This document shows, piece after piece, positions 3,942 to 22,745 of a stretch of 37,523 nucleotides of DNA. A program made the translations under genes and the position numbers. Each line of letters opens with the position of its first letter. The first letter of the stretch is position 1. The DNA lies in NCBI GenBank assembly GCA_027451965.1, contig DAIDHJ010000001.1, positions 317,276 through 354,798 of the forward strand, given 5' to 3'. The notes under the pieces were generated by a model. That model saw nothing but the letters and a program-made list of their open reading frames with translations, had not been told where the DNA came from and ran no database searches. The DNA comes from Candidatus Adlerbacteria bacterium (GTDB taxonomy: Bacteria > Patescibacteriota > Minisyncoccia > Phycocordibacterales > SBAW01).

Positions 3942-4718
3942 ATGTTACGCAAGGTTCCGCAGATCACAGTGTTTTTCTGGATCGTGAAAGTGATTACCAC
4001 TGCTCTTGGTGAAAGCACTTCCGATTTTCTTGTGTATTCCATCAATCCTTATGTTGCGGTTGCTATTGGCTTTCTTGCATTCGCTGCTGCTCTCGCATTC
4101 CAATTCTGGTGGCCACGATATACAGCATGGGTCTACTGGCTCGCTGTTACTATGGTCGCTATTTTTGGAACAATGGGAGCGGATGTGCTGCATATTGTCA
4201 TTGGTATTCCATACCTTTACACCACAATATTTTTCGCTGTTTCACTCTTTATTATTTTTATTCTCTGGTACGTAGTCGAGAAAACACTTTCTATTCACAG
4301 CATAAATACTTCTCGACGCGAGATATTCTACTGGCTTACAGTATGCGCAACGTTCGCGCTGGGGACTGCATGGGGTGATATGATGGCATTCACACTCCAC
4401 TTAGGGTTTTTCACTGCAGGACTGTTTTTTGCTGCACTCATCGCTCTCGTTGCGGTTCTCCATTATGCAGCGAAAGGCTGGTTCAGCGAACGTCATAAGC
4501 ATCTGTCACGCAATGCGGTGCTTACATTCTGGATCGCGTACATCCTCACACGCCCTCTCGGAGCCTCGTTTGCCGACTGGTTTGGAAAATCGTCCTCGAT
4601 TGGTGGTCTTGGGTGGGGAGATGGAATAGTAAGCTCCATCCTTGCGGTGCTTCTCATAGGTTTTGTTTGGTACCTTACCGTTACTCGTATTGATGTAGAT
4701 CGTTCGCACCTTGAGTGA
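3942..4718 (+). CDS. Multi-pass membrane protein, COG4705/DUF347-repeat family
   Basis: KVPQITVFFWIVKVITTALGESTSD, four internal repeats (GTMGAD, GTAWGD, TRPLGASFADW), EKTLSIHSI. Confidence 0.85.
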   Translation: MLRKVPQITVFFWIVKVITTALGESTSDFLVYSINPYVAVAIGFLAFAAALAFQFWWPRYTAWVYWLAVTMVAIFGTMGADVLHIVIGIPYLYTTIFFAVSLFIIFILWYVVEKTLSIHSINTSRREIFYWLTVCATFALGTAWGDMMAFTLHLGFFTAGLFFAALIALVAVLHYAAKGWFSERHKHLSRNAVLTFWIAYILTRPLGASFADWFGKSSSIGGLGWGDGIVSSILAVLLIGFVWYLTVTRIDVDRSHLE

Positions 4719-15632: not shown

Positions 15633-15703
15633 TGGGAGATCGTCTAATGGTAGGACAGCGGCCTTTGAAGCCGTTAATCATGGTTCGAATCCATGTCTCC
15701 CAG
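15633..15703 (+). tRNA. tRNA-Gln(TTG), 3' CCA not encoded (followed by CTA)
   Basis: TGGGAGA/TCTCCCA acceptor, GCGGC-CT TTG AA-GCCGT, CATGG-TTCGAAT-CCATG. Confidence 0.96.
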
Positions 15704-15778
15704 CTAGTATATTTACATATTAACGATACTGTTGTATAGTATTTTTAGTTACAAGTATCCCTTTGAAAGGAGGGTTTC

Positions 15779-17656
15779 ATGGTTCCTTCACAACTTCACA
15801 CCAAAGCTCGTGAGTTTACTGCTCAAGTGCCTAATATGTGGCGCATGATGCGTGAAGCACGTCAGTTCATGTATACCGTGAGTCCTTCCATGTATTACAT
15901 GTCATGGTTCGAAGGTATACTGGGCGGCATTGCTACACTAGGTGGTTTTGCTGCAGTAAGTGTATTTTTCCAACATGCGACTGGAGGTGCGGTACAGTCA
16001 TGGTTACATTCGCAACATGTAAGCATTGCTTTCATTATAGTAGCGCTTGTTGCTATCGTACTTTACTTTCTCATTCGCGGCACACTACATGCAATTGGTA
16101 ATTTGCGCAGGAGTCTTCTTCAAAACAAAGTAGAGCTACTCCTGGAGCAGGAAGAGATTAATCTGTTGATGAATTTAGATGCCGGACGTCTTTCTGACCC
16201 TGCATTTATGTTCATCAGAGAAAAAGCGACCAAATGGCATGGACGCAACGCCGTTTCCCAACTCTTTACAAAACAACGTAATGTGTTTGGAGCACTGGTT
16301 GGCGTTCTTGCATCTCTGGGTTTACTTGCAATATTGAACCCCCTCTTCATTGTACTTACCACAATTCCTATTGTGGTTGGAACACTTGCAGAAATGCAGC
16401 GCGAAAAGAAAGATCGCGCTATATGGGAATCAATGCATTTAACCCGTCGTTTACACGATGAGTACGAACGCTGTCTCATGGATCCCATGTATTTATTGCA
16501 AGGAAAGCTTTTTTGTTTTACATCGTACTGGCGAAAGCGCTACAACACGATGCAAAATGAACTGGTTCAAAAAGAACAAGAACTGGAGTGGTTCAGATAC
16601 AAGTGGAATCTCGTCAATGTGGGGACTGGGGTATGTATGCTCGCCATCATTATGGGGTACCTTGGTCATGGAATAGCTGATCGAACCATAGCATTTTCAG
16701 AAGTCTTTCTGATTTGGGGTAGCATGCAAACGCTCGCTCGCTCTATTACCAGTTTTTCTTCTTCGATCGGACAAATTTGGCAAGGATGTCTCGATTATAC
16801 GTACCGTGAGCAGTTTCTTACAACCAAGCCGCTTATCGACGAGTCGAAGTCGGAGTCGTTCCGATTTCCTTCTACGCCGAAGCTTGAGTTGCGAGAAGTT
16901 TTTTTCCGTTACCCACGGGAAGAGAACCTAGTACTCAAAGGGTGTTCAATTTCGATTACGCCAAATGAAAAGGTGGCTATCGTAGGTCAGAATGGTTCTG
17001 GGAAGAGTACGCTGTTACGGCTACTATCGAAGATCTACCTACCTGATGAGGGTCAGGTGCTAGTCGATGGTTTGTCGATTTCTCGCATTACACAATCTTC
17101 TTGGTTCGAGCAAATACTCTTTGCTACGCAGGATACTCAACTCCCGAGACTTACTGTCGAAGAAGTTCTTACAGGAGGACCTCCACGAACCGCTGATATG
17201 AATCGGCTTATCCAAGCTGCAGGGCATGCACGAGCTGTTGAAATGATCACCGATGAGTTTCCTCAGCAGTATGAACAACAACTTGGTGCTGACTGGCCAG
17301 ATGGTAAAGAACCATCGACTGGTCAGTGGCAACGGCTCAAGATCACCTCAGCCTTCTATCGACTACTTGAACCGGCAGTGCGCATCGGTCTCTTCGACGA
17401 ACCGATGTCGCAATGTGACGTAGAGACACGAGAACGTTTCTATCGTGAGTTACAAGGAGTCAGTGGTAAGACCATTATCGTGGTTGCACATGATCCTGTA
17501 TATCTGCACTATTTCCAGCGGGTTATCCTAATGGAACATGGCTGCATTGTACGAGATATGTGCACCCGAGAAGAGATTGTTGCTTATCAGCGCGAAGCTA
17601 TCCCTCGATTTGAGCAGATTGAGCGCAAGGGTAACCATCTTTGGTCAGTGGAGTAA
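15779..17656 (+). CDS. Fused ABC exporter (TMD + NBD), divergent
   Basis: About 6 TM helices, Walker A GQNGSGKST, signature PSTGQWQRL, Walker B GLFDEP, H-loop VAHD; SD AAAGGAGG. Confidence 0.9.
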   Translation: MVPSQLHTKAREFTAQVPNMWRMMREARQFMYTVSPSMYYMSWFEGILGGIATLGGFAAVSVFFQHATGGAVQSWLHSQHVSIAFIIVALVAIVLYFLIRGTLHAIGNLRRSLLQNKVELLLEQEEINLLMNLDAGRLSDPAFMFIREKATKWHGRNAVSQLFTKQRNVFGALVGVLASLGLLAILNPLFIVLTTIPIVVGTLAEMQREKKDRAIWESMHLTRRLHDEYERCLMDPMYLLQGKLFCFTSYWRKRYNTMQNELVQKEQELEWFRYKWNLVNVGTGVCMLAIIMGYLGHGIADRTIAFSEVFLIWGSMQTLARSITSFSSSIGQIWQGCLDYTYREQFLTTKPLIDESKSESFRFPSTPKLELREVFFRYPREENLVLKGCSISITPNEKVAIVGQNGSGKSTLLRLLSKIYLPDEGQVLVDGLSISRITQSSWFEQILFATQDTQLPRLTVEEVLTGGPPRTADMNRLIQAAGHARAVEMITDEFPQQYEQQLGADWPDGKEPSTGQWQRLKITSAFYRLLEPAVRIGLFDEPMSQCDVETRERFYRELQGVSGKTIIVVAHDPVYLHYFQRVILMEHGCIVRDMCTREEIVAYQREAIPRFEQIERKGNHLWSVE

Positions 17657-17668
17657 GTAGTTCAACAG

Positions 17669-17697
17669 AAAAAGGAGTCTTTCGAGACTCCTTTTTT
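17669..17697 (+). terminator. Intrinsic terminator
   Basis: AAAAAGGAGTCT-TTCG-AGACTCC followed by a T run. Confidence 0.9.
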
Positions 17698-17744
17698 ATT
17701 TTGATCTTAAGAGGCTTCTTATATTACCCAACTCACGCAGCAAG

Positions 17745-17777
17745 TACTTGACAAGTAAGTAATAAGTGTAGTATAAT
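17745..17777 (+). promoter_or_regulatory. Consensus sigma70 promoter with a palindromic -35 box
   Basis: TTGACA (17748-17753)-18 nt-TATAAT (17772-17777); palindrome TACTTG-A-CAAGTA. Confidence 0.8.
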
Positions 17778-17828
17778 GTAGAAGTACGATCTTTAACAGT
17801 TCTAGTCTAGCTCAAGAAAGGAGCAAAC

Positions 17829-18167
17829 ATGGTTCAGTGGTATCGTTCTCTCCCGGCGTGGCAGCAGGCTGTGCTGCGAGATCTTGGACGAGGACTGTTG
17901 GCCTTATGTCTCCTTCCATTCCGGATTCTCGGGTGGATCTTGAGAGAGATGGGAACACAGGCAACGACGAGTACACAACGTTTCGTTCGGCCACTTCTGT
18001 GGCCGGCAGCTGGAGTCTTCGCCCTCTTCGCATTCTATACGGTGATGGGACCTCAGCAATTCTCGTCTCTCGTCGGTCTGCTTTTGACCTTGGGTATCGT
18101 CCTTTACGGACTGAAACTCATGGTCTTCGGTTTTTCAAAACCGAAGAAAAGAAAGCGGACACACTAA
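17829..18167 (+). CDS. Small hypothetical membrane protein (112 aa) with a basic C-tail
   Basis: SD GAAAGGAG, 2-3 hydrophobic segments, KPKKRKRTH end, own promoter and terminator. Confidence 0.75.
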   Translation: MVQWYRSLPAWQQAVLRDLGRGLLALCLLPFRILGWILREMGTQATTSTQRFVRPLLWPAAGVFALFAFYTVMGPQQFSSLVGLLLTLGIVLYGLKLMVFGFSKPKKRKRTH

Positions 18168-18175
18168 CATTCTCG

Positions 18176-18204
18176 GGCGGATTGCAATAGCGATCCGCCT
18201 TTTT
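18176..18204 (+). terminator. Intrinsic terminator
   Basis: GGCGGATTGC-AATA-GCGATCCGCC-TTTTT. Confidence 0.85.
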
Positions 18205-18272
18205 AATTTGCTATTAATAAGGTTCTCATATAATCCAACTCACGCAGCCAAGTCGTTATAGGTTCTTGGGTT

Positions 18273-18999
18273 CGAGATGCGTCGTTTACTTAACAATAGA
18301 ATAGATTACAATCAGATTGTATGAGTCAGCTAAAAATAGTTGCGCTCGGTGAAATAACTCAGAAGGCTGGAAAAGCTTTCTTTCCGCGTTTTGGGGGAAG
18401 CTTAAAAGATACTCTCGAACCATTTCCTGCGGAATATTTAGAAAAACAAAAAGAACATCCTGTAAAATTTTGGGGAGATATTTTCTGGGCTTTCAAAGAT
18501 ATTGTAGTCCAAGTGCTGAATTATTACGATGCAAAATCGGATTACGAAGTATCTACAGAAGTTGCGCATTTTGTAGTGAATTATTTGAAAAGTGATAAAT
18601 CTAAAAGATTGCTTAGCCAACTAGTGCCTTTTGGGGAATACATAGAAATGGGTAACGATTTCATGATGGAGACCGCAAGTCCAAGTGATAAATCGGCTCA
18701 ATTCAAGGATTGGTTTACAAAGGCGCTAACCCTCATTTGTATGGGGGTGCGTATAAGTTCTAAAGAAGAAGAGGCGCAAGTTAACACACAAAGAGAAGCT
18801 ATGCGTAAACTCGCACTACTTGCTTTGAAAGGATTGCATAATAATTCTTCCAAAGAAGATTTGACTGTAGCCACTTGGTTTAAGAATATGTTTTTACTAT
18901 TTGAAAATCTCGATATCAAGGGATCTACGCCGATGTTTTCTTTTGAGGAACAGAGTGCATTGGTCTGATATTTATAGATACACCCGAGACGCGTCGTTT
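18273..18999 (+). repeat. 15-bp direct repeat B (18273-18287 / 18985-18999), one mismatch
   Basis: CGAGATGCGTCGTTT versus CGAGACGCGTCGTTT, bracketing the 215-aa gene. Confidence 0.8.
18321..18968 (+). CDS. Hypothetical soluble protein (215 aa)
   Basis: Long AT-rich ORF with TACAAT 8 nt upstream; no motif recognised. Confidence 0.75.
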   Translation: MSQLKIVALGEITQKAGKAFFPRFGGSLKDTLEPFPAEYLEKQKEHPVKFWGDIFWAFKDIVVQVLNYYDAKSDYEVSTEVAHFVVNYLKSDKSKRLLSQLVPFGEYIEMGNDFMMETASPSDKSAQFKDWFTKALTLICMGVRISSKEEEAQVNTQREAMRKLALLALKGLHNNSSKEDLTVATWFKNMFLLFENLDIKGSTPMFSFEEQSALV

Positions 19000-19140
19000 T
19001 GTAAGTGTAAAATGAAGCTAATCCGTCAAGCGGGGTTTGACCGACCACGGTTCGAGCACGAGATGGCCAGCCAGTTTGAGACAGGTTCAGTCTCCGAGGT
19101 GTCTTTATAAAATATTAAAAAGGGGGCGTATACTTTATTT

Positions 19141-19686
19141 GTGATAGACATAATCAATAAAAACCAAGGGGTCATATCCTTTCTTGCGATTATTATCTCT
19201 CTAGTAACTTATTTCCTCACTGGCCAGAAATTGTGGGTCTTCGCTGTGCTTGTTGCAGTAATACTCATTTTGAGCGTACTCCTTTTTTGGGAGAAAAAGC
19301 GCCACAAATCTTTTGTAGATACTCAGAAGAAAGCCCGCATCCTATTCATTGATGACAAACACTGCGAGATTGTGACTAACTTACGGCGTAACGACTTTGA
19401 AGTTCGAAAAATTGATGATGTAACATCGCCAGCAACAGATACTGATGTTCAATGGGCAAATATAATCTTTGTCGACTATAAAGATGTTGGCAAGAAACTT
19501 TTTGGGAAAAAAGAAGGTCTCGGTCTTATAAGCGAGCTGAAGAGAACCTATATGAACAATAAGCGTTACGTTATCTATTCATCAGTACAAGATTTCGATG
19601 GACTTGTTGAGTTTCCATACATTCGGAAAAATGCTTCTTATGACGAATTCGTATCGCTAATTTCTACTGAGCTGGCCAAACTATGA
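19141..19686 (+). CDS. Membrane-anchored receiver (REC)-domain protein with no output domain
   Basis: Two N-terminal TM helices, then RILFIDD, IIFVDY (phospho-Asp position), EGLGLISELK, VIYSS, YIRK. Confidence 0.75.
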   Translation: MIDIINKNQGVISFLAIIISLVTYFLTGQKLWVFAVLVAVILILSVLLFWEKKRHKSFVDTQKKARILFIDDKHCEIVTNLRRNDFEVRKIDDVTSPATDTDVQWANIIFVDYKDVGKKLFGKKEGLGLISELKRTYMNNKRYVIYSSVQDFDGLVEFPYIRKNASYDEFVSLISTELAKL

Positions 19687-20687
19687 TTCACTTAAGAATC
19701 ACAAGTCAGGATAGGGTTTTGATAAATACATTTCCAGACGAATTTAGCGTTGAGGGCGCAGAAAAAGATAAGGATGTCCGCTACGTGGAACAAAAGATAG
19801 ATTCAGGGATCATTGAATTTCTTTTTGTGAAAGAGCCGCGTATCGCGAGGAGTAACAAGGTTCTCAATGCCTTTACATCGGCAATGACGATTCTTCTTGA
19901 AGAATCATTAAAGAATAATGTCCAACGAGCTCAAGAAATGGCTGATGATTACTTACATAACATAAAGAAGATTCATGGAAATCAAAAAAGCATAATTGAG
20001 AGATGTGTGTCAGGAGCCGAAGAACAAGAAAACTATCAGGAGTTCGTCAAATCTGTTGCGAGAGAAGTCCAGGAGAATCCAAGTGTAACAGCAGAGGATA
20101 TCTGCGCTCTTTCAAAAGAGATACGGCTGATTGATTACCATATTGGAGGTTACAACCTGTTGCGGGACAATTCATCGCGAATAGCAATTACGGACAATCA
20201 CGACTTAAGAAAGTTTCTACTAGGGTTATCTCATCTATTTTTCGATTCTTTCTCAAAGAATAAAGTTCTTGTTAGTCTGCATGAGATTGACAAAGATTTC
20301 CGATGTTCATTCGAATACGAAACTTTCAATGTTGCCATGCATAGCTTCCTCGAGAATATCGTCAAATATTCTAAGCCCTACTCTAAGGTGAGAATTTATA
20401 CGCAAAATACGGGTCAACTTATTTTCCAAATGGAAAGTATTCGCCTCGAGAAGGATGAGTTAACCAGTATTTTCAAAAGAGGAGTGTCTGGTCGCAATGT
20501 TCCAGATGATTTGCGTGGGAATGGCATTGGCATGTATCAACTAAAGAAGGCTTTGGATAGAAGTAATATCTCCATATCTATCAGGCCAAATTACTCAAAA
20601 AACTCAGATTTAAACGGCATTCAATATGCCGAGAACATTTTTTCGTTTACATTTCCGAAATTCTCGTTCCGAGATGTATCATTTTAA
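19683..20687 (+). CDS. Soluble histidine-kinase-like HATPase protein
   Basis: ATGA overlap with the REC gene. H-box-like DYLHNIKK, N-box LENIVKYS, F-box IFKRGVSG, G2 GNGIGMY; no TM. Confidence 0.75.
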   Translation: MIHLRITSQDRVLINTFPDEFSVEGAEKDKDVRYVEQKIDSGIIEFLFVKEPRIARSNKVLNAFTSAMTILLEESLKNNVQRAQEMADDYLHNIKKIHGNQKSIIERCVSGAEEQENYQEFVKSVAREVQENPSVTAEDICALSKEIRLIDYHIGGYNLLRDNSSRIAITDNHDLRKFLLGLSHLFFDSFSKNKVLVSLHEIDKDFRCSFEYETFNVAMHSFLENIVKYSKPYSKVRIYTQNTGQLIFQMESIRLEKDELTSIFKRGVSGRNVPDDLRGNGIGMYQLKKALDRSNISISIRPNYSKNSDLNGIQYAENIFSFTFPKFSFRDVSF

Positions 20688-20814
20688 AAAAGGAAAAGTC
20701 GCCCGAAAACCCTTGTGGTGCTTGATGGATAATTTTCTGAAACCGAGGGGCCAGCCAGTTTGAGATACGTTCGGAGTTCAAGTAATATAAATCTTATATC
20801 CCAACTAACTTCCT

Positions 20815-21279
20815 ATGCGTAAATTACTTGTCTGGATTGTTTTAATTCTTATTGTTGCAGTAGCAGTATGGTACACACTACCCAAACGAGCGCCACAGCA
20901 ACAGAGCAATAGCGCTGCCAGTACCACTCAAATACCCGGCGACAATCTTACCTTAGGGCAAACTGCCTCTGCCGGAGTGGGAACATATCTCGTGGCATAT
21001 AACGGGATGACTCTCTACACGTATGCGCTTGATGCTACCAATGTTTCCAATTGCACCGGAGGATGCGCAGTCGCGTGGCCGCCGTATCTGGTAACTTCAA
21101 CAAAAAACCTTGTAGCAGAATATCCGCTTAATGGAATGATAGGGACCATTGCCCGTAGCGACGGTTCAACACAAATAACCTATAACGGCCGACCGCTCTA
21201 CTTTTTCAAAGGAGATACAGCGCCAAATCAGGTAAATGGGCAGGGTATCGGAGGAGTGTGGTACGCAGCAAAGCCTTAA
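20815..21279 (+). CDS. Secreted/anchored COG4315-type protein with Yx(F/W/Y)xxD repeats
   Basis: GMTLYTYALD, CTGGCAVAWPP, QITYNGRPLYFFKGD, GQGIGGVW. Confidence 0.85.
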   Translation: MRKLLVWIVLILIVAVAVWYTLPKRAPQQQSNSAASTTQIPGDNLTLGQTASAGVGTYLVAYNGMTLYTYALDATNVSNCTGGCAVAWPPYLVTSTKNLVAEYPLNGMIGTIARSDGSTQITYNGRPLYFFKGDTAPNQVNGQGIGGVWYAAKP

Positions 21280-22745
21280 GGCAGTACGTTCCAAATATTC
21301 GGATCCTCACCTCCATCTAATTTGAATATTGCTACGCCTCGTACGCCAAGCTGTTTAGCTAAGGTAACTTTTTGTGCGATTGCTTGCGCATCGCTCCAAT
21401 CGATCAAGTTGAATGTGGATCCGGTTGTCGTAGACATGCCATCGGTATAGGAGACAGAGGGCATGTTAACAGTGTTTGTTGGATTGAGATCAACTTCATC
21501 TCCCGTAGGCGAATAATTTCCCGATGATACATAGGTAAATGATGGCTCTCCGGCGCTATTGCGAATAGGGGAGATACCCAGTTTCGACATGAGATCGAGT
21601 GCGTATTTCTGGTTGAACGGCCAGAGCATCTGATACTTGTACTGGTATCCGGAGGAAGAGATTACCGGCGTGACCGAATATTCATAGCCGTAGGTAGGAA
21701 CGCCGATAATGATTTTGTTTCGTGCGATGGACTGTGCAGCGAGATTTACCAGATCGCTGACCCATTTCGGATCGGCAACCGGAGCGTAAGGACCGGTTTG
21801 TTCTTTGTTCAATGGCTTGTCGATAGTGCCCTGGTCATATGCCATAATCTCGACTCGGTCGCAGTATCGGTTCATTTGCGTGTAATCATTTGCATAGTCT
21901 GTTGCGTCCAAAGGAATGGTAGCTCCCGGGGCATATCGATCGCTCAGTGGCATCCGTGCTTCCACGGTGCAATACACCCATTTGTTTCCCATCTTGGGAT
22001 AGAGTTCTCGTAAGAATGCCGAAAATGCATTTCTGGTATCTGCGGTTTTTGCCTCGAAATCAATATCAATGCCATCAAAATTGTTTTGACGCACTGTTGC
22101 GACAATCTCATTTTCAAGTGCGATACGAGATGCTGGATCAGTAAGTACTGCCTGTTCTGCAGTGCCGTTACCCCACATCACGGTCGGTACTACGCGAACA
22201 TGAGCTTGTTTTGCAGTCGCAATGAATGAGCTCCAAGTGATTCCGGTAATATTTCCCGCATCGTATAGATGGCCGTTCACGGTTACGGTGTAATTAAACG
22301 GCATGACTGAAGTGAGCTGATTAAGATGCGGCAACACATCTTGCGTACCGGATGCAGTGCTCCAGTAGGGAATCCATCCGGATATCTCAAACTTTCCCGT
22401 TGCACGGCGCGTTTCTGTACCGGTGAGTATTGCTTCTGGATTGGTAAAATTATACAGCGCTTGCTGAGTAAGCGGTCCTGCAATGCCATATCCGGAGTAG
22501 GCCGCGCCGGAGCAGATAATATTTTCCGTGCATTGAAACTTTTCTACTGCCGCTTGTGTCAGCGGTCCGAAATAACCGGTAGCACTATCTGAAGAAAGGT
22601 AGCCAAGAGTGATCAGCTGTTTTTGAAGAAGGGTCACTCCATACCCTGAGGAACCAAGAGTGAAAGACCGGGCGGCAAAGGAAGTGTGCGGTAGAAGGAG
22701 AACTATCACTGCCAGTATTCCGATAAATAAATGTTGTTGTTTCAT
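21276..22745 (-). CDS. Secreted GH18 glycoside hydrolase with an N-terminal peptidoglycan-binding domain
   Basis: Signal peptide; LGSSG..V..LQ..L...GY..TGYFGPLTQAAVEKFQ; intact DGIDIDFE catalytic motif; IMAYD; GVPTYGY. Confidence 0.9.
   Translation of the reverse strand: MKQQHLFIGILAVIVLLLPHTSFAARSFTLGSSGYGVTLLQKQLITLGYLSSDSATGYFGPLTQAAVEKFQCTENIICSGAAYSGYGIAGPLTQQALYNFTNPEAILTGTETRRATGKFEISGWIPYWSTASGTQDVLPHLNQLTSVMPFNYTVTVNGHLYDAGNITGITWSSFIATAKQAHVRVVPTVMWGNGTAEQAVLTDPASRIALENEIVATVRQNNFDGIDIDFEAKTADTRNAFSAFLRELYPKMGNKWVYCTVEARMPLSDRYAPGATIPLDATDYANDYTQMNRYCDRVEIMAYDQGTIDKPLNKEQTGPYAPVADPKWVSDLVNLAAQSIARNKIIIGVPTYGYEYSVTPVISSSGYQYKYQMLWPFNQKYALDLMSKLGISPIRNSAGEPSFTYVSSGNYSPTGDEVDLNPTNTVNMPSVSYTDGMSTTTGSTFNLIDWSDAQAIAQKVTLAKQLGVRGVAIFKLDGGEDPNIWNVLP

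Follow-up and report, generated by a model that had tools for sequence, protein, structure and literature searches.

A tRNA-Gln-linked array of small cargo units in a Candidatus Adlerbacteria genome and a 92-nucleotide element common to several Patescibacteria classes

We analysed a 37,523-nucleotide (nt) stretch of DNA (the window) from the genome of a Candidatus Adlerbacteria bacterium (551,879 bases, 98.98% complete), in which small genes lie between short direct repeats downstream of a tRNA-Gln(ttg) gene. Our favoured reading, to which we give a probability of roughly 0.6, is that four small islets, none encoding a recombinase, are stacked between 15.7 and 20.8 kb and accumulated behind this tRNA gene by serial site-specific integration. 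The repeats are homologous to the 3' ends of tRNA-Gln genes and to the trailers that follow them in relatives, and two of the repeat copies belong to a conserved 92-nt element, the end of which matches the tRNA upstream. The same modules bracket other cargo in other genomes, which supports the view of the repeats as attachment-site-like sequences at a gene-insertion hot spot, in partial agreement with a first-pass annotation of this DNA. From these patterns we infer integration as the mechanism, a large serine recombinase as its agent and a crossover at the tRNA-like tail.

Direct repeats, tRNA-Gln-like tails and trailers

The first-pass annotation described three consecutive cargo units, each bracketed by a direct-repeat pair of its own (A, B and C; copies numbered 1 and 2). 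All three pairs were recovered at their places and proved rare in shuffled sequence (100 shuffles of the window per motif): the A core with up to two mismatches occurs twice (0.30 expected; 4 of 100 shuffles reach two), C with up to three mismatches twice (0.07 expected; 0 of 100) and B with up to two mismatches twice (0.11 expected; 0 of 100). In the whole genome, motifs A, B and C are each present only at their two places in the window, with one B-like 12-mer carrying a single mismatch elsewhere; as the repeats are unique to the locus, they are not regulatory motifs of the ordinary genome-wide kind. Repeat A, annotated as approximately 34 bp with a 14-bp core, kept its core and turned out to be longer, with 14 exact nt inside 49 nt, and each of its copies starts within the T-tail of a terminator; repeat C has 17 exact nt within 24. 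A third, weaker copy of box B (80%) lies at position 20670. The pairs do not overlap and are separated by 24 nt (A2 to B1) and 65 nt (B2 to C1), in agreement with the annotated distances of about 20 and 65 bp. The enclosed genes were also as described: a promoter, a gene for a protein of 112 amino acids (aa) and a terminator within A, a 215-aa gene within B, and a pair of overlapping open reading frames (ORFs) within C.

The independence of the three pairs did not survive comparison with relatives. We compared the region with the DNA of 40 related genomes (G-numbers denote relatives' genomes, and L-numbers denote fetched loci, mostly of relatives) and found short, strong matches exactly at the repeats, at 18232-18290, 18985-19085 and 20751-20790. 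A2 with its trailer matched G039, G025 and G023 at 78-85% identity, and C2 with its trailer matched G027, G040 and G019 at 85-91%. In G023, G039 and G316 a genuine tRNA-Gln gene is immediately followed by the sequence of A2 and B1, and in G027 and G040 a genuine tRNA-Gln(ttg) by that of C2; A2 plus B1, C1 and C2 could be aligned column by column with the tRNA-Gln 3' end and trailer of these five genomes. Judged by sequence, A1, A2, C1 and C2 are tRNA-Gln-like 3' ends, which we call tails (..CAGC, with or without a following CA). The trailer after A2 is conserved over about 40 nt and its last box is B1; the second type of trailer, found after both C1 and C2, is homologous to the first and also occurs after genuine tRNA-Gln(ttg) in G027 and G040. 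A2 and B1 are therefore one tail-plus-trailer module, and B2 and C1 belong to one 92-nt element, so that the 24-nt gap is simply the middle of a trailer and the 65-nt gap the body of the element (Table 1).

The annotation of B as a private duplication has to be given up as well, since B is a conserved box of both modules. Exact matches of at least 10 nt between boxes were present in 4 of 21 same-locus pairs and in 42 of 420 other pairs; being no more alike within than between loci, B1 and B2 are read as homologous boxes and not as a duplication produced by the arrival of the 215-aa gene. Box B was also considered as the crossover core, a candidate that was dropped as likeness within and between loci did not clearly differ.

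An inverted copy of the T-arm (..GGATTCGAA..), which could pair with the 3' part of the tRNA, was seen about 50-60 nt after many relatives' tRNA-Gln genes (L082, L088, L094, L097, L101, L016, L023 and L069) and is absent after the tRNA-Gln of the window.

Table 1. Features of the array and its right-hand neighbours. The order is tRNA, ABC transporter, A1, 112-aa gene, A2-trailer (with B1), 215-aa gene, element (from B2 to C1) with trailer, PDC-M43, C2-trailer, core genes; the repeat pairs are listed last.
Feature	Position	Strand	Description
tRNA-Gln(ttg)	15633-15704	+	ARAGORN and Rfam; anchor of the array, 2 kb upstream of A1
Unit 1	15779-17656	+	625-aa fused ATP-binding cassette (ABC) transporter; Pfam ABC_tran, E 2.3e-20; terminator 17668-17697
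A1	17693-17741	+	terminator T-tail, degenerate T-arm-like stretch, tRNA-Gln-like tail ..CCAACTCACGCAGC
Unit 2	17748-18200	+	promoter 17748-17777, 112-aa ORF 17829-18167, terminator 18175-18200
A2 and trailer type 1	18200-18290	+	tail 18200-18248 runs into trailer CCAAGTCGTTATAGGTTC..., ending in B1 (18273-18287)
Unit 3	18321-18968	+	215-aa protein of unknown function; G+C 0.38
92-nt element	18983-19073	+	starts with box B2 (18985-18999), ends with tail ..CGAGATGGCCAGC(CA), where C1 begins
C1 and trailer type 2, first copy	19065-19105	+	C1 19065-19088; trailer CCAGTTTGAGACAGGTTCAGTCTCCGAGGTG
Unit 4	19141-20687	+	PDC-M43A (181 aa) and PDC-M43B (334 aa), ORFs overlapping by 4 nt; G+C 0.38
C2 and trailer type 2, second copy	20749-20790	+	C2 20749-20772; right edge of the array
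Lipoprotein_15	20815-21279		core gene
GH18	21276-22745		core gene
Repeat A	17693-17741 / 18200-18248	+	49 nt, 82% identity, exact 14-mer core CCAACTCACGCAGC
Repeat B	18273-18287 / 18985-18999	+	15 nt, 1 mismatch
Repeat C	19065-19088 / 20749-20772	+	24 nt, 92% identity, first 17 nt identical

A conserved 92-nt element with a tail matching the upstream tRNA

The 92-nt element is present as a single copy in its own genome (profile search; nhmmer E 8.3e-26). Alignment of 21 copies gave sharp borders between the element and unrelated flanks, and its body contains the near-invariant GGGCTTGACCGACCACGGTTC. In a BLAST search of 301 genomes of the order, matches were obtained in 55, own genome counted; in 14 of these the match covers at least 79 of the element's first 87 nt at 71-87% identity. 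The element profile also matched 51 of 80 loci fetched by a shared 17-mer, which bear names from several Patescibacteria groups. Within the genus, the DnaX protein is only 58-73% identical, suggesting that the element is kept far better than neutral DNA would be.

The element is linked to tRNA genes by its tail. We examined the 28 distinct elements that have a tRNA on their own strand within 5 kb upstream; the last four bases of the tail were those of the tRNA in 27: in 17 of 18 cases for tRNA-Gln (CAGC), and in 7 of 7 for tRNA-Ser, 2 of 2 for tRNA-Trp and 1 of 1 for tRNA-Asp (all CCGC). Kin among the 28 elements are not independent, yet the split is clean, and exactly this match would result if an integrative element brought along a copy of the end of its target. 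Of 25 element loci, 13 have a same-strand tRNA-Gln upstream at a distance of 0.37-13.3 kb, and 7 of the other 12 are truncated by contig ends. Arrays of two to four elements with intervening cargo occur in G018, G300 and G257.

Strong conservation, sharp borders and an orientation shared with the tRNA would also fit a different explanation, namely that trailer and element have a function within the tRNA-Gln locus, as RNA or in regulation (for example as processing signals, terminators or a small RNA), and that cargo accumulates around them, the repeats being a mark of this function and not of recombination. In its favour, RNAalifold predicted a small invariant hairpin, GACCG-ACCA-CGGTT, within the element. 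The 21 aligned elements nevertheless yielded no credible consensus fold (-4.77 kcal/mol, covariation term -0.29, 1 compensatory pair in 10). In Rfam searches of the window and of four relatives' loci only tRNAs passed, with no family for the element or the trailers, and lenient thresholds on the region gave best matches of 16-21 bits against gathering scores of 38-59. Given that unrelated genes separate the element from the tRNA by 0.4-13 kb, and that the element forms arrays of up to four copies and is followed by genes that vary by locus, we regard a role as functional RNA or regulatory part as improbable.

Relatives also show variation at and around the element. L067 (about 4140-4330, minus strand), L028, L032, L034, L018, L044 and L008 carry a direct-repeat motif, GTGTCACTTTTGTCACTTTTTG, immediately upstream of the element, and in G232 it lies between the element and the recombinase gene; the window lacks this motif, which could be an operator or a site for an accessory protein. 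In L070 (1818-2017; G257, contig C57) about 105 inserted nt interrupt one copy of the element between profile positions 58 and 60, tail and trailer being kept. In L152 (4325-4483) only 2 nt separate a tRNA-Gln(ctg) from a downstream element that lacks its first box, the tRNA tail and CCAAGTCGTGC standing in the box's place, and this is the nearest case seen to a ground state of tRNA plus element.

Cargo, recombinase and the proposed integration

Tails, element and cargo ORFs all lie on the plus strand between 15.7 and 20.8 kb, in the orientation of the tRNA-Gln(ttg) gene. The pair of dnaX and tRNA-Gln(ttg) is kept in 16 of 20 same-genus loci, and none of the five cargo proteins of the window was found behind it in these 20 loci, where the only ABC matches downstream of the tRNA were 25-30% identical. 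We count the ABC transporter that precedes A1 as probable cargo as well, solely on the ground of its absence at this site in relatives. The sequence right after the tRNA in the window is unrelated and lacks the conserved trailer. Units 3 and 4 appear foreign by composition: their G+C is 0.38, that of the genome is 0.471, and a value as low is reached in only 3.2% of 2.46-kb genome windows.

Between the tails, units 2, 3 and 4 hold nothing but cargo ORFs, and these encode neither recombination nor transfer functions. The promoter of unit 2 matches the consensus at 12 of 12 positions; its 112-aa product is a two-helix membrane protein with a weak T4SS_pilin match (E 0.049) and no Pfam family at E 0.01. 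The 215-aa protein has no Pfam family either, its best Atlas score (0.76) is below the useful range, and neither protein has relatives in 2.48 Mb of fetched loci. In unit 4, PADLOC assigned the 181-aa protein to PDC-M43A (E 6.9e-20) and the 334-aa protein to PDC-M43B (E 2.8e-42), both components being adjacent, which makes this unit a candidate anti-phage defence system; the name PDC-M43 was not found in the literature. The pair had been annotated as REC/HATPase. The HATPase half of that assignment stands in part, with a sub-threshold HATPase_c match in the 334-aa protein (E 0.0073, 17.2 bits against a cut-off of 26.4 bits), and the REC half does not: the 181-aa protein carries N-terminal membrane helices and showed no Pfam receiver domain even at E up to 10.

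In other genomes the DNA between tRNA and element differs in every case, the cargo being mostly oriented like the tRNA. Between the same modules we found a MacB-type efflux system with MarR, an LD-carboxypeptidase with a GDSL lipase, and a BNR protein; further cargo included a Cu-ATPase with CsoR, methylases, a Cap15-type receptor, Fic and AEP-TOTE genes. Defence-type genes thus lie beside the element in relatives (Cap15 cyclic-dinucleotide receptor domain, Fic, AEP-TOTE primase; L054 11689-12306 and L071 3385-4828), which fits the PDC-M43 cargo of the window.

A candidate for the enzyme was suggested by the neighbourhood of the element in relatives. Four large serine recombinases encoded near the element come from four families and share 67-77% identity; of 51 element loci, 11 have a protein of their clade at most 10 kb away. 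In 10 of these 11 the gene lies upstream on the opposite strand, either 0.3-1.3 kb or 6-8.3 kb away, and in G232 its start is 258 nt from the element. The clade is also present in 46 loci of predicted viruses in IMG/VR. In four of them the recombinase stop codon is followed at 119-152 nt by a convergent tRNA gene (Gln twice, Glu, Asp), the layout published for the Dehalococcoides ssrA islands (PMC3146451). The element itself was found in only one of the 46 viral loci, and a search of IMG/VR for the exact element 17-mer gave no match.

That a recombinase gene can end close to a tRNA 3' end bears on the annotation's own explanation of the minus-strand peptides of A and of the SNWLA read in both copies of C: in its account, three independent units, each with a private repeat pair, kept remnants of a recombinase 3' end overlapping its attachment (att) site. 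Apart from this layout in relatives and viral contigs, the account has in its favour that the pairs do not overlap and that each brackets a gene set. The A peptides do exist, as open stretches of 27-28 codons between stops, and they are encoded by the tRNA-like tail itself together with the T-arm-like stretch; compared with the four serine recombinases of the clade they gave nothing significant (best E 7.9, at internal positions). They are a by-product of the DNA repeat. As A2 with B1 and B2 with C1 are moreover single conserved modules, in which B is a shared box, the account is largely refuted for the four recombinases tested, and we consider it highly improbable.

Under serial integration, the attachment site of the mobile units would combine a conserved arm, a copy of the tRNA tail and a trailer, and the units would integrate one after another at the tRNA 3' end or at an earlier tail copy. 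Every integration would leave tail-bounded DNA, the bounds in the window being the tRNA itself, A1, A2, C1 and C2, and the trailer with B1 and the 92-nt element from B2 to C1 would be the two attachment-site arms that flank unit 3. The enzyme would be a large serine recombinase of the clade that adjoins the same element in relatives, and loss of the recombinase module would leave minimal islets. With the enzyme absent from the genome, such islets would be fixed, or movable only if a related element supplied it. A bolder version, which we put forward tentatively and think unlikely, is that element and boxed trailer are no decaying scar but a dedicated recombination module used across several Patescibacteria classes, with the serine recombinase clade docking small, self-expressed units behind tRNAs and earlier copies of the module. 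If true, ultra-small genomes would possess an integron-like row of captured genes, with the tRNA unbroken and the enzyme supplied by passing elements.

A number of observations weigh against serial integration. Searches for Resolvase and Recombinase domains found no serine recombinase in the genome, and the array contains no integrase or recombinase. The clade is common regardless of the element (197 of 301 genomes, a tally that includes G273, flagged unpublished; by hand tally, 40 of the 54 element-bearing relatives), and most genomic cases have no tRNA beside the recombinase. The ends of recombinase-bearing elements could not be defined from these comparisons: no repeat of at least 12 nt connects the recombinase-stop side with the element side in 10 loci, where only chance-sized 10-11-mers occur, and no further copy of a tRNA tail was found along 11 viral contigs. 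The tail of the window's own tRNA-Gln(ttg), TCTCCCAGC, is only loosely like A (CACGCAGC) and C (GGCCAGC), A1 and this tRNA share little except CAGC, and all four tails are closer to relatives' tRNA-Gln tails and trailers than to the end of the own tRNA. In G002, the sole relative with a PDC-M43 homologue and a member of the same genus, no tails, boxes or element surround the pair, and the identical G+C of units 3 and 4 means that they may be one acquisition.

The empty-site alleles with a single repeat copy that the annotation had looked to were not seen either. In 25 element loci, tRNA, trailer and full element are never contiguous, and a pattern search of 401 genomes for empty sites gave four matches, all unrelated or coding; this pattern needed 20-50 nt between CAGC and the box, and would miss sites with a 16-17-nt trailer. 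Public metagenome data (three runs of one study, contigs, depth 1-10, with most of 18276-20750 uncovered) provided no usable deletion joint. One joint, 19053>20754, was rejected as evidence of excision, having only 29 nt on its short side in a contig 85% alike. An 895-nt contig of run X1 matches 20753-21320 at 94% identity and is then unlike for 327 nt, the break falling exactly at the start of C2, suggesting that a related population has something else upstream of the C2 tail.

Several of these points would be expected if the cassettes had been swapped by homologous (RecA-type) recombination, in which Patescibacteria DNA that was taken up recombines through the tRNA, trailers and element, and the repeats arrive with the blocks. 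The absence of an empty site, the lack of a recombinase in the array and of a serine recombinase in the genome, the shared G+C of units 3 and 4, as if acquired en bloc, and a box B no more alike within loci than between them all fit this explanation, as does the existence of anchors of 72-92 nt that are 72-90% alike across families. It leaves unexplained, however, why the tail agrees with the upstream tRNA, whatever its kind (27 of 28), and why one recombinase clade lies near the element in a regular orientation (11 of 51). The arms at A and C2 are not conserved elsewhere and so could not serve as shared anchors, and anchors below 100 nt at approximately 80% identity are in general poor substrates for homologous exchange. 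We therefore judge cassette swapping to be rather unlikely and retain serial site-specific integration as the reading that the tail match favours.

Tyrosine recombinases are present in the genome, as two Phage_integrase matches that both lie away from the array. Outside the window, a 1.75-kb contig of the own genome (named C2 in the assembly and distinct from the repeat copy; L074 1-1751) is filled by a 462-aa tyrosine-integrase-like ORF (Phage_integrase E 8.3e-6, narrowly missing the cut-off), and both its ends are the antisense of a tRNA 5' half. From its sequence, this contig appears to be a second tRNA-linked island, of a different type and left unassembled.

Relation to known islands and significance

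The nearest known counterparts are the ssrA genomic islands of Dehalococcoides. McMurdie et al. (2011; PMC3146451) describe tandem islands downstream of ssrA that are bounded by direct repeats of its 3' end, with extra conserved sequence just upstream of each repeat and, where present, a large serine recombinase on the reverse strand beside attL; many of the islands lack an integration module and are read as cis-mobilizable or fixed, and their cargo is low in G+C. The units of the window likewise stand in tandem behind a small structured-RNA gene, with tail repeats, low-G+C cargo and no enzyme kept. They differ in that the anchor is tRNA-Gln (in relatives also tRNA-Ser, tRNA-Trp and tRNA-Asp) rather than transfer-messenger RNA, that the units, with one or two genes on 0.5-2 kb, are much smaller and that the conserved arm is a 92-nt element common to several Patescibacteria classes. 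Also unlike in the Dehalococcoides islands, the own genome lacks an integration module, and a role for the recombinase is suggested by its neighbourhood in other genomes only.

Stacking at one site is well known from other systems. The staphylococcal cassette chromosome (SCC) elements SCCmec and their pseudo-SCC composites, of 20-60 kb, use CcrAB or CcrC large serine recombinases at the 3' end of rlmH (orfX). They share with the array the stacking, the copies of the integration site as bounds, recombinase-less members beside ones with a recombinase, and a serine recombinase as the enzyme; the site in the window, by contrast, mimics a tRNA end and not a protein gene, the units are minimal and no Ccr-type pair was seen. 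Cis-mobilizable elements (CIMEs) at the att sites of streptococcal ICEs (integrative and conjugative elements) and IMEs (integrative and mobilizable elements) are tandem stretches flanked by attL and attR that lack recombination and transfer genes and are mobilised in trans only. Units 2-4 resemble them in being flanked by att-like sequences, in tandem, without recombination or transfer genes; CIMEs, however, use tyrosine integrases beside a complete ICE, and our genome has no complete element. The tycheposons of Prochlorococcus likewise combine a streamlined genome with tRNA-linked islands of small, stacked cargo elements, as in the window, but carry a tyrosine recombinase of their own, which the window units do not; we know of no 92-nt tail-mimicking element described for them.

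Integron arrays are similar in that single-gene units share one orientation, sites of about 60-140 nt for recombination lie between them and no recombinase is encoded inside the units. The array in the window has no IntI/attI platform and no adjacent integrase, and its units have promoters and terminators of their own. Its spacer is conserved in sequence without a conserved hairpin, whereas attC is conserved in structure and not in sequence. Altogether, the array is of a known kind, that of tandem and partly integrase-less islands at the 3' end of a small-RNA gene, and differs in unit size, in the 92-nt tail-mimicking element with its CGAGAY-type boxes and in the host group. A description of such a locus was not found in the Patescibacteria and Saccharibacteria literature on genomic islands and serine recombinases; by term search, the main text of one paper on Patescibacteria genomic islands (PMC12455944) mentions neither tRNA nor integrase nor recombinase.

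Patescibacteria genomes measure about half a megabase, and their gain of accessory genes is poorly documented. The window offers a compact example of a hot spot behind tRNA-Gln, holding a candidate anti-phage system and tied to a 92-nt site and one recombinase clade. If the link to the recombinase is true, it would provide a short attachment-site pair (attP/attB) together with its enzyme from an uncultured group, and imported genes in such genomes would be recognisable from sequence alone.

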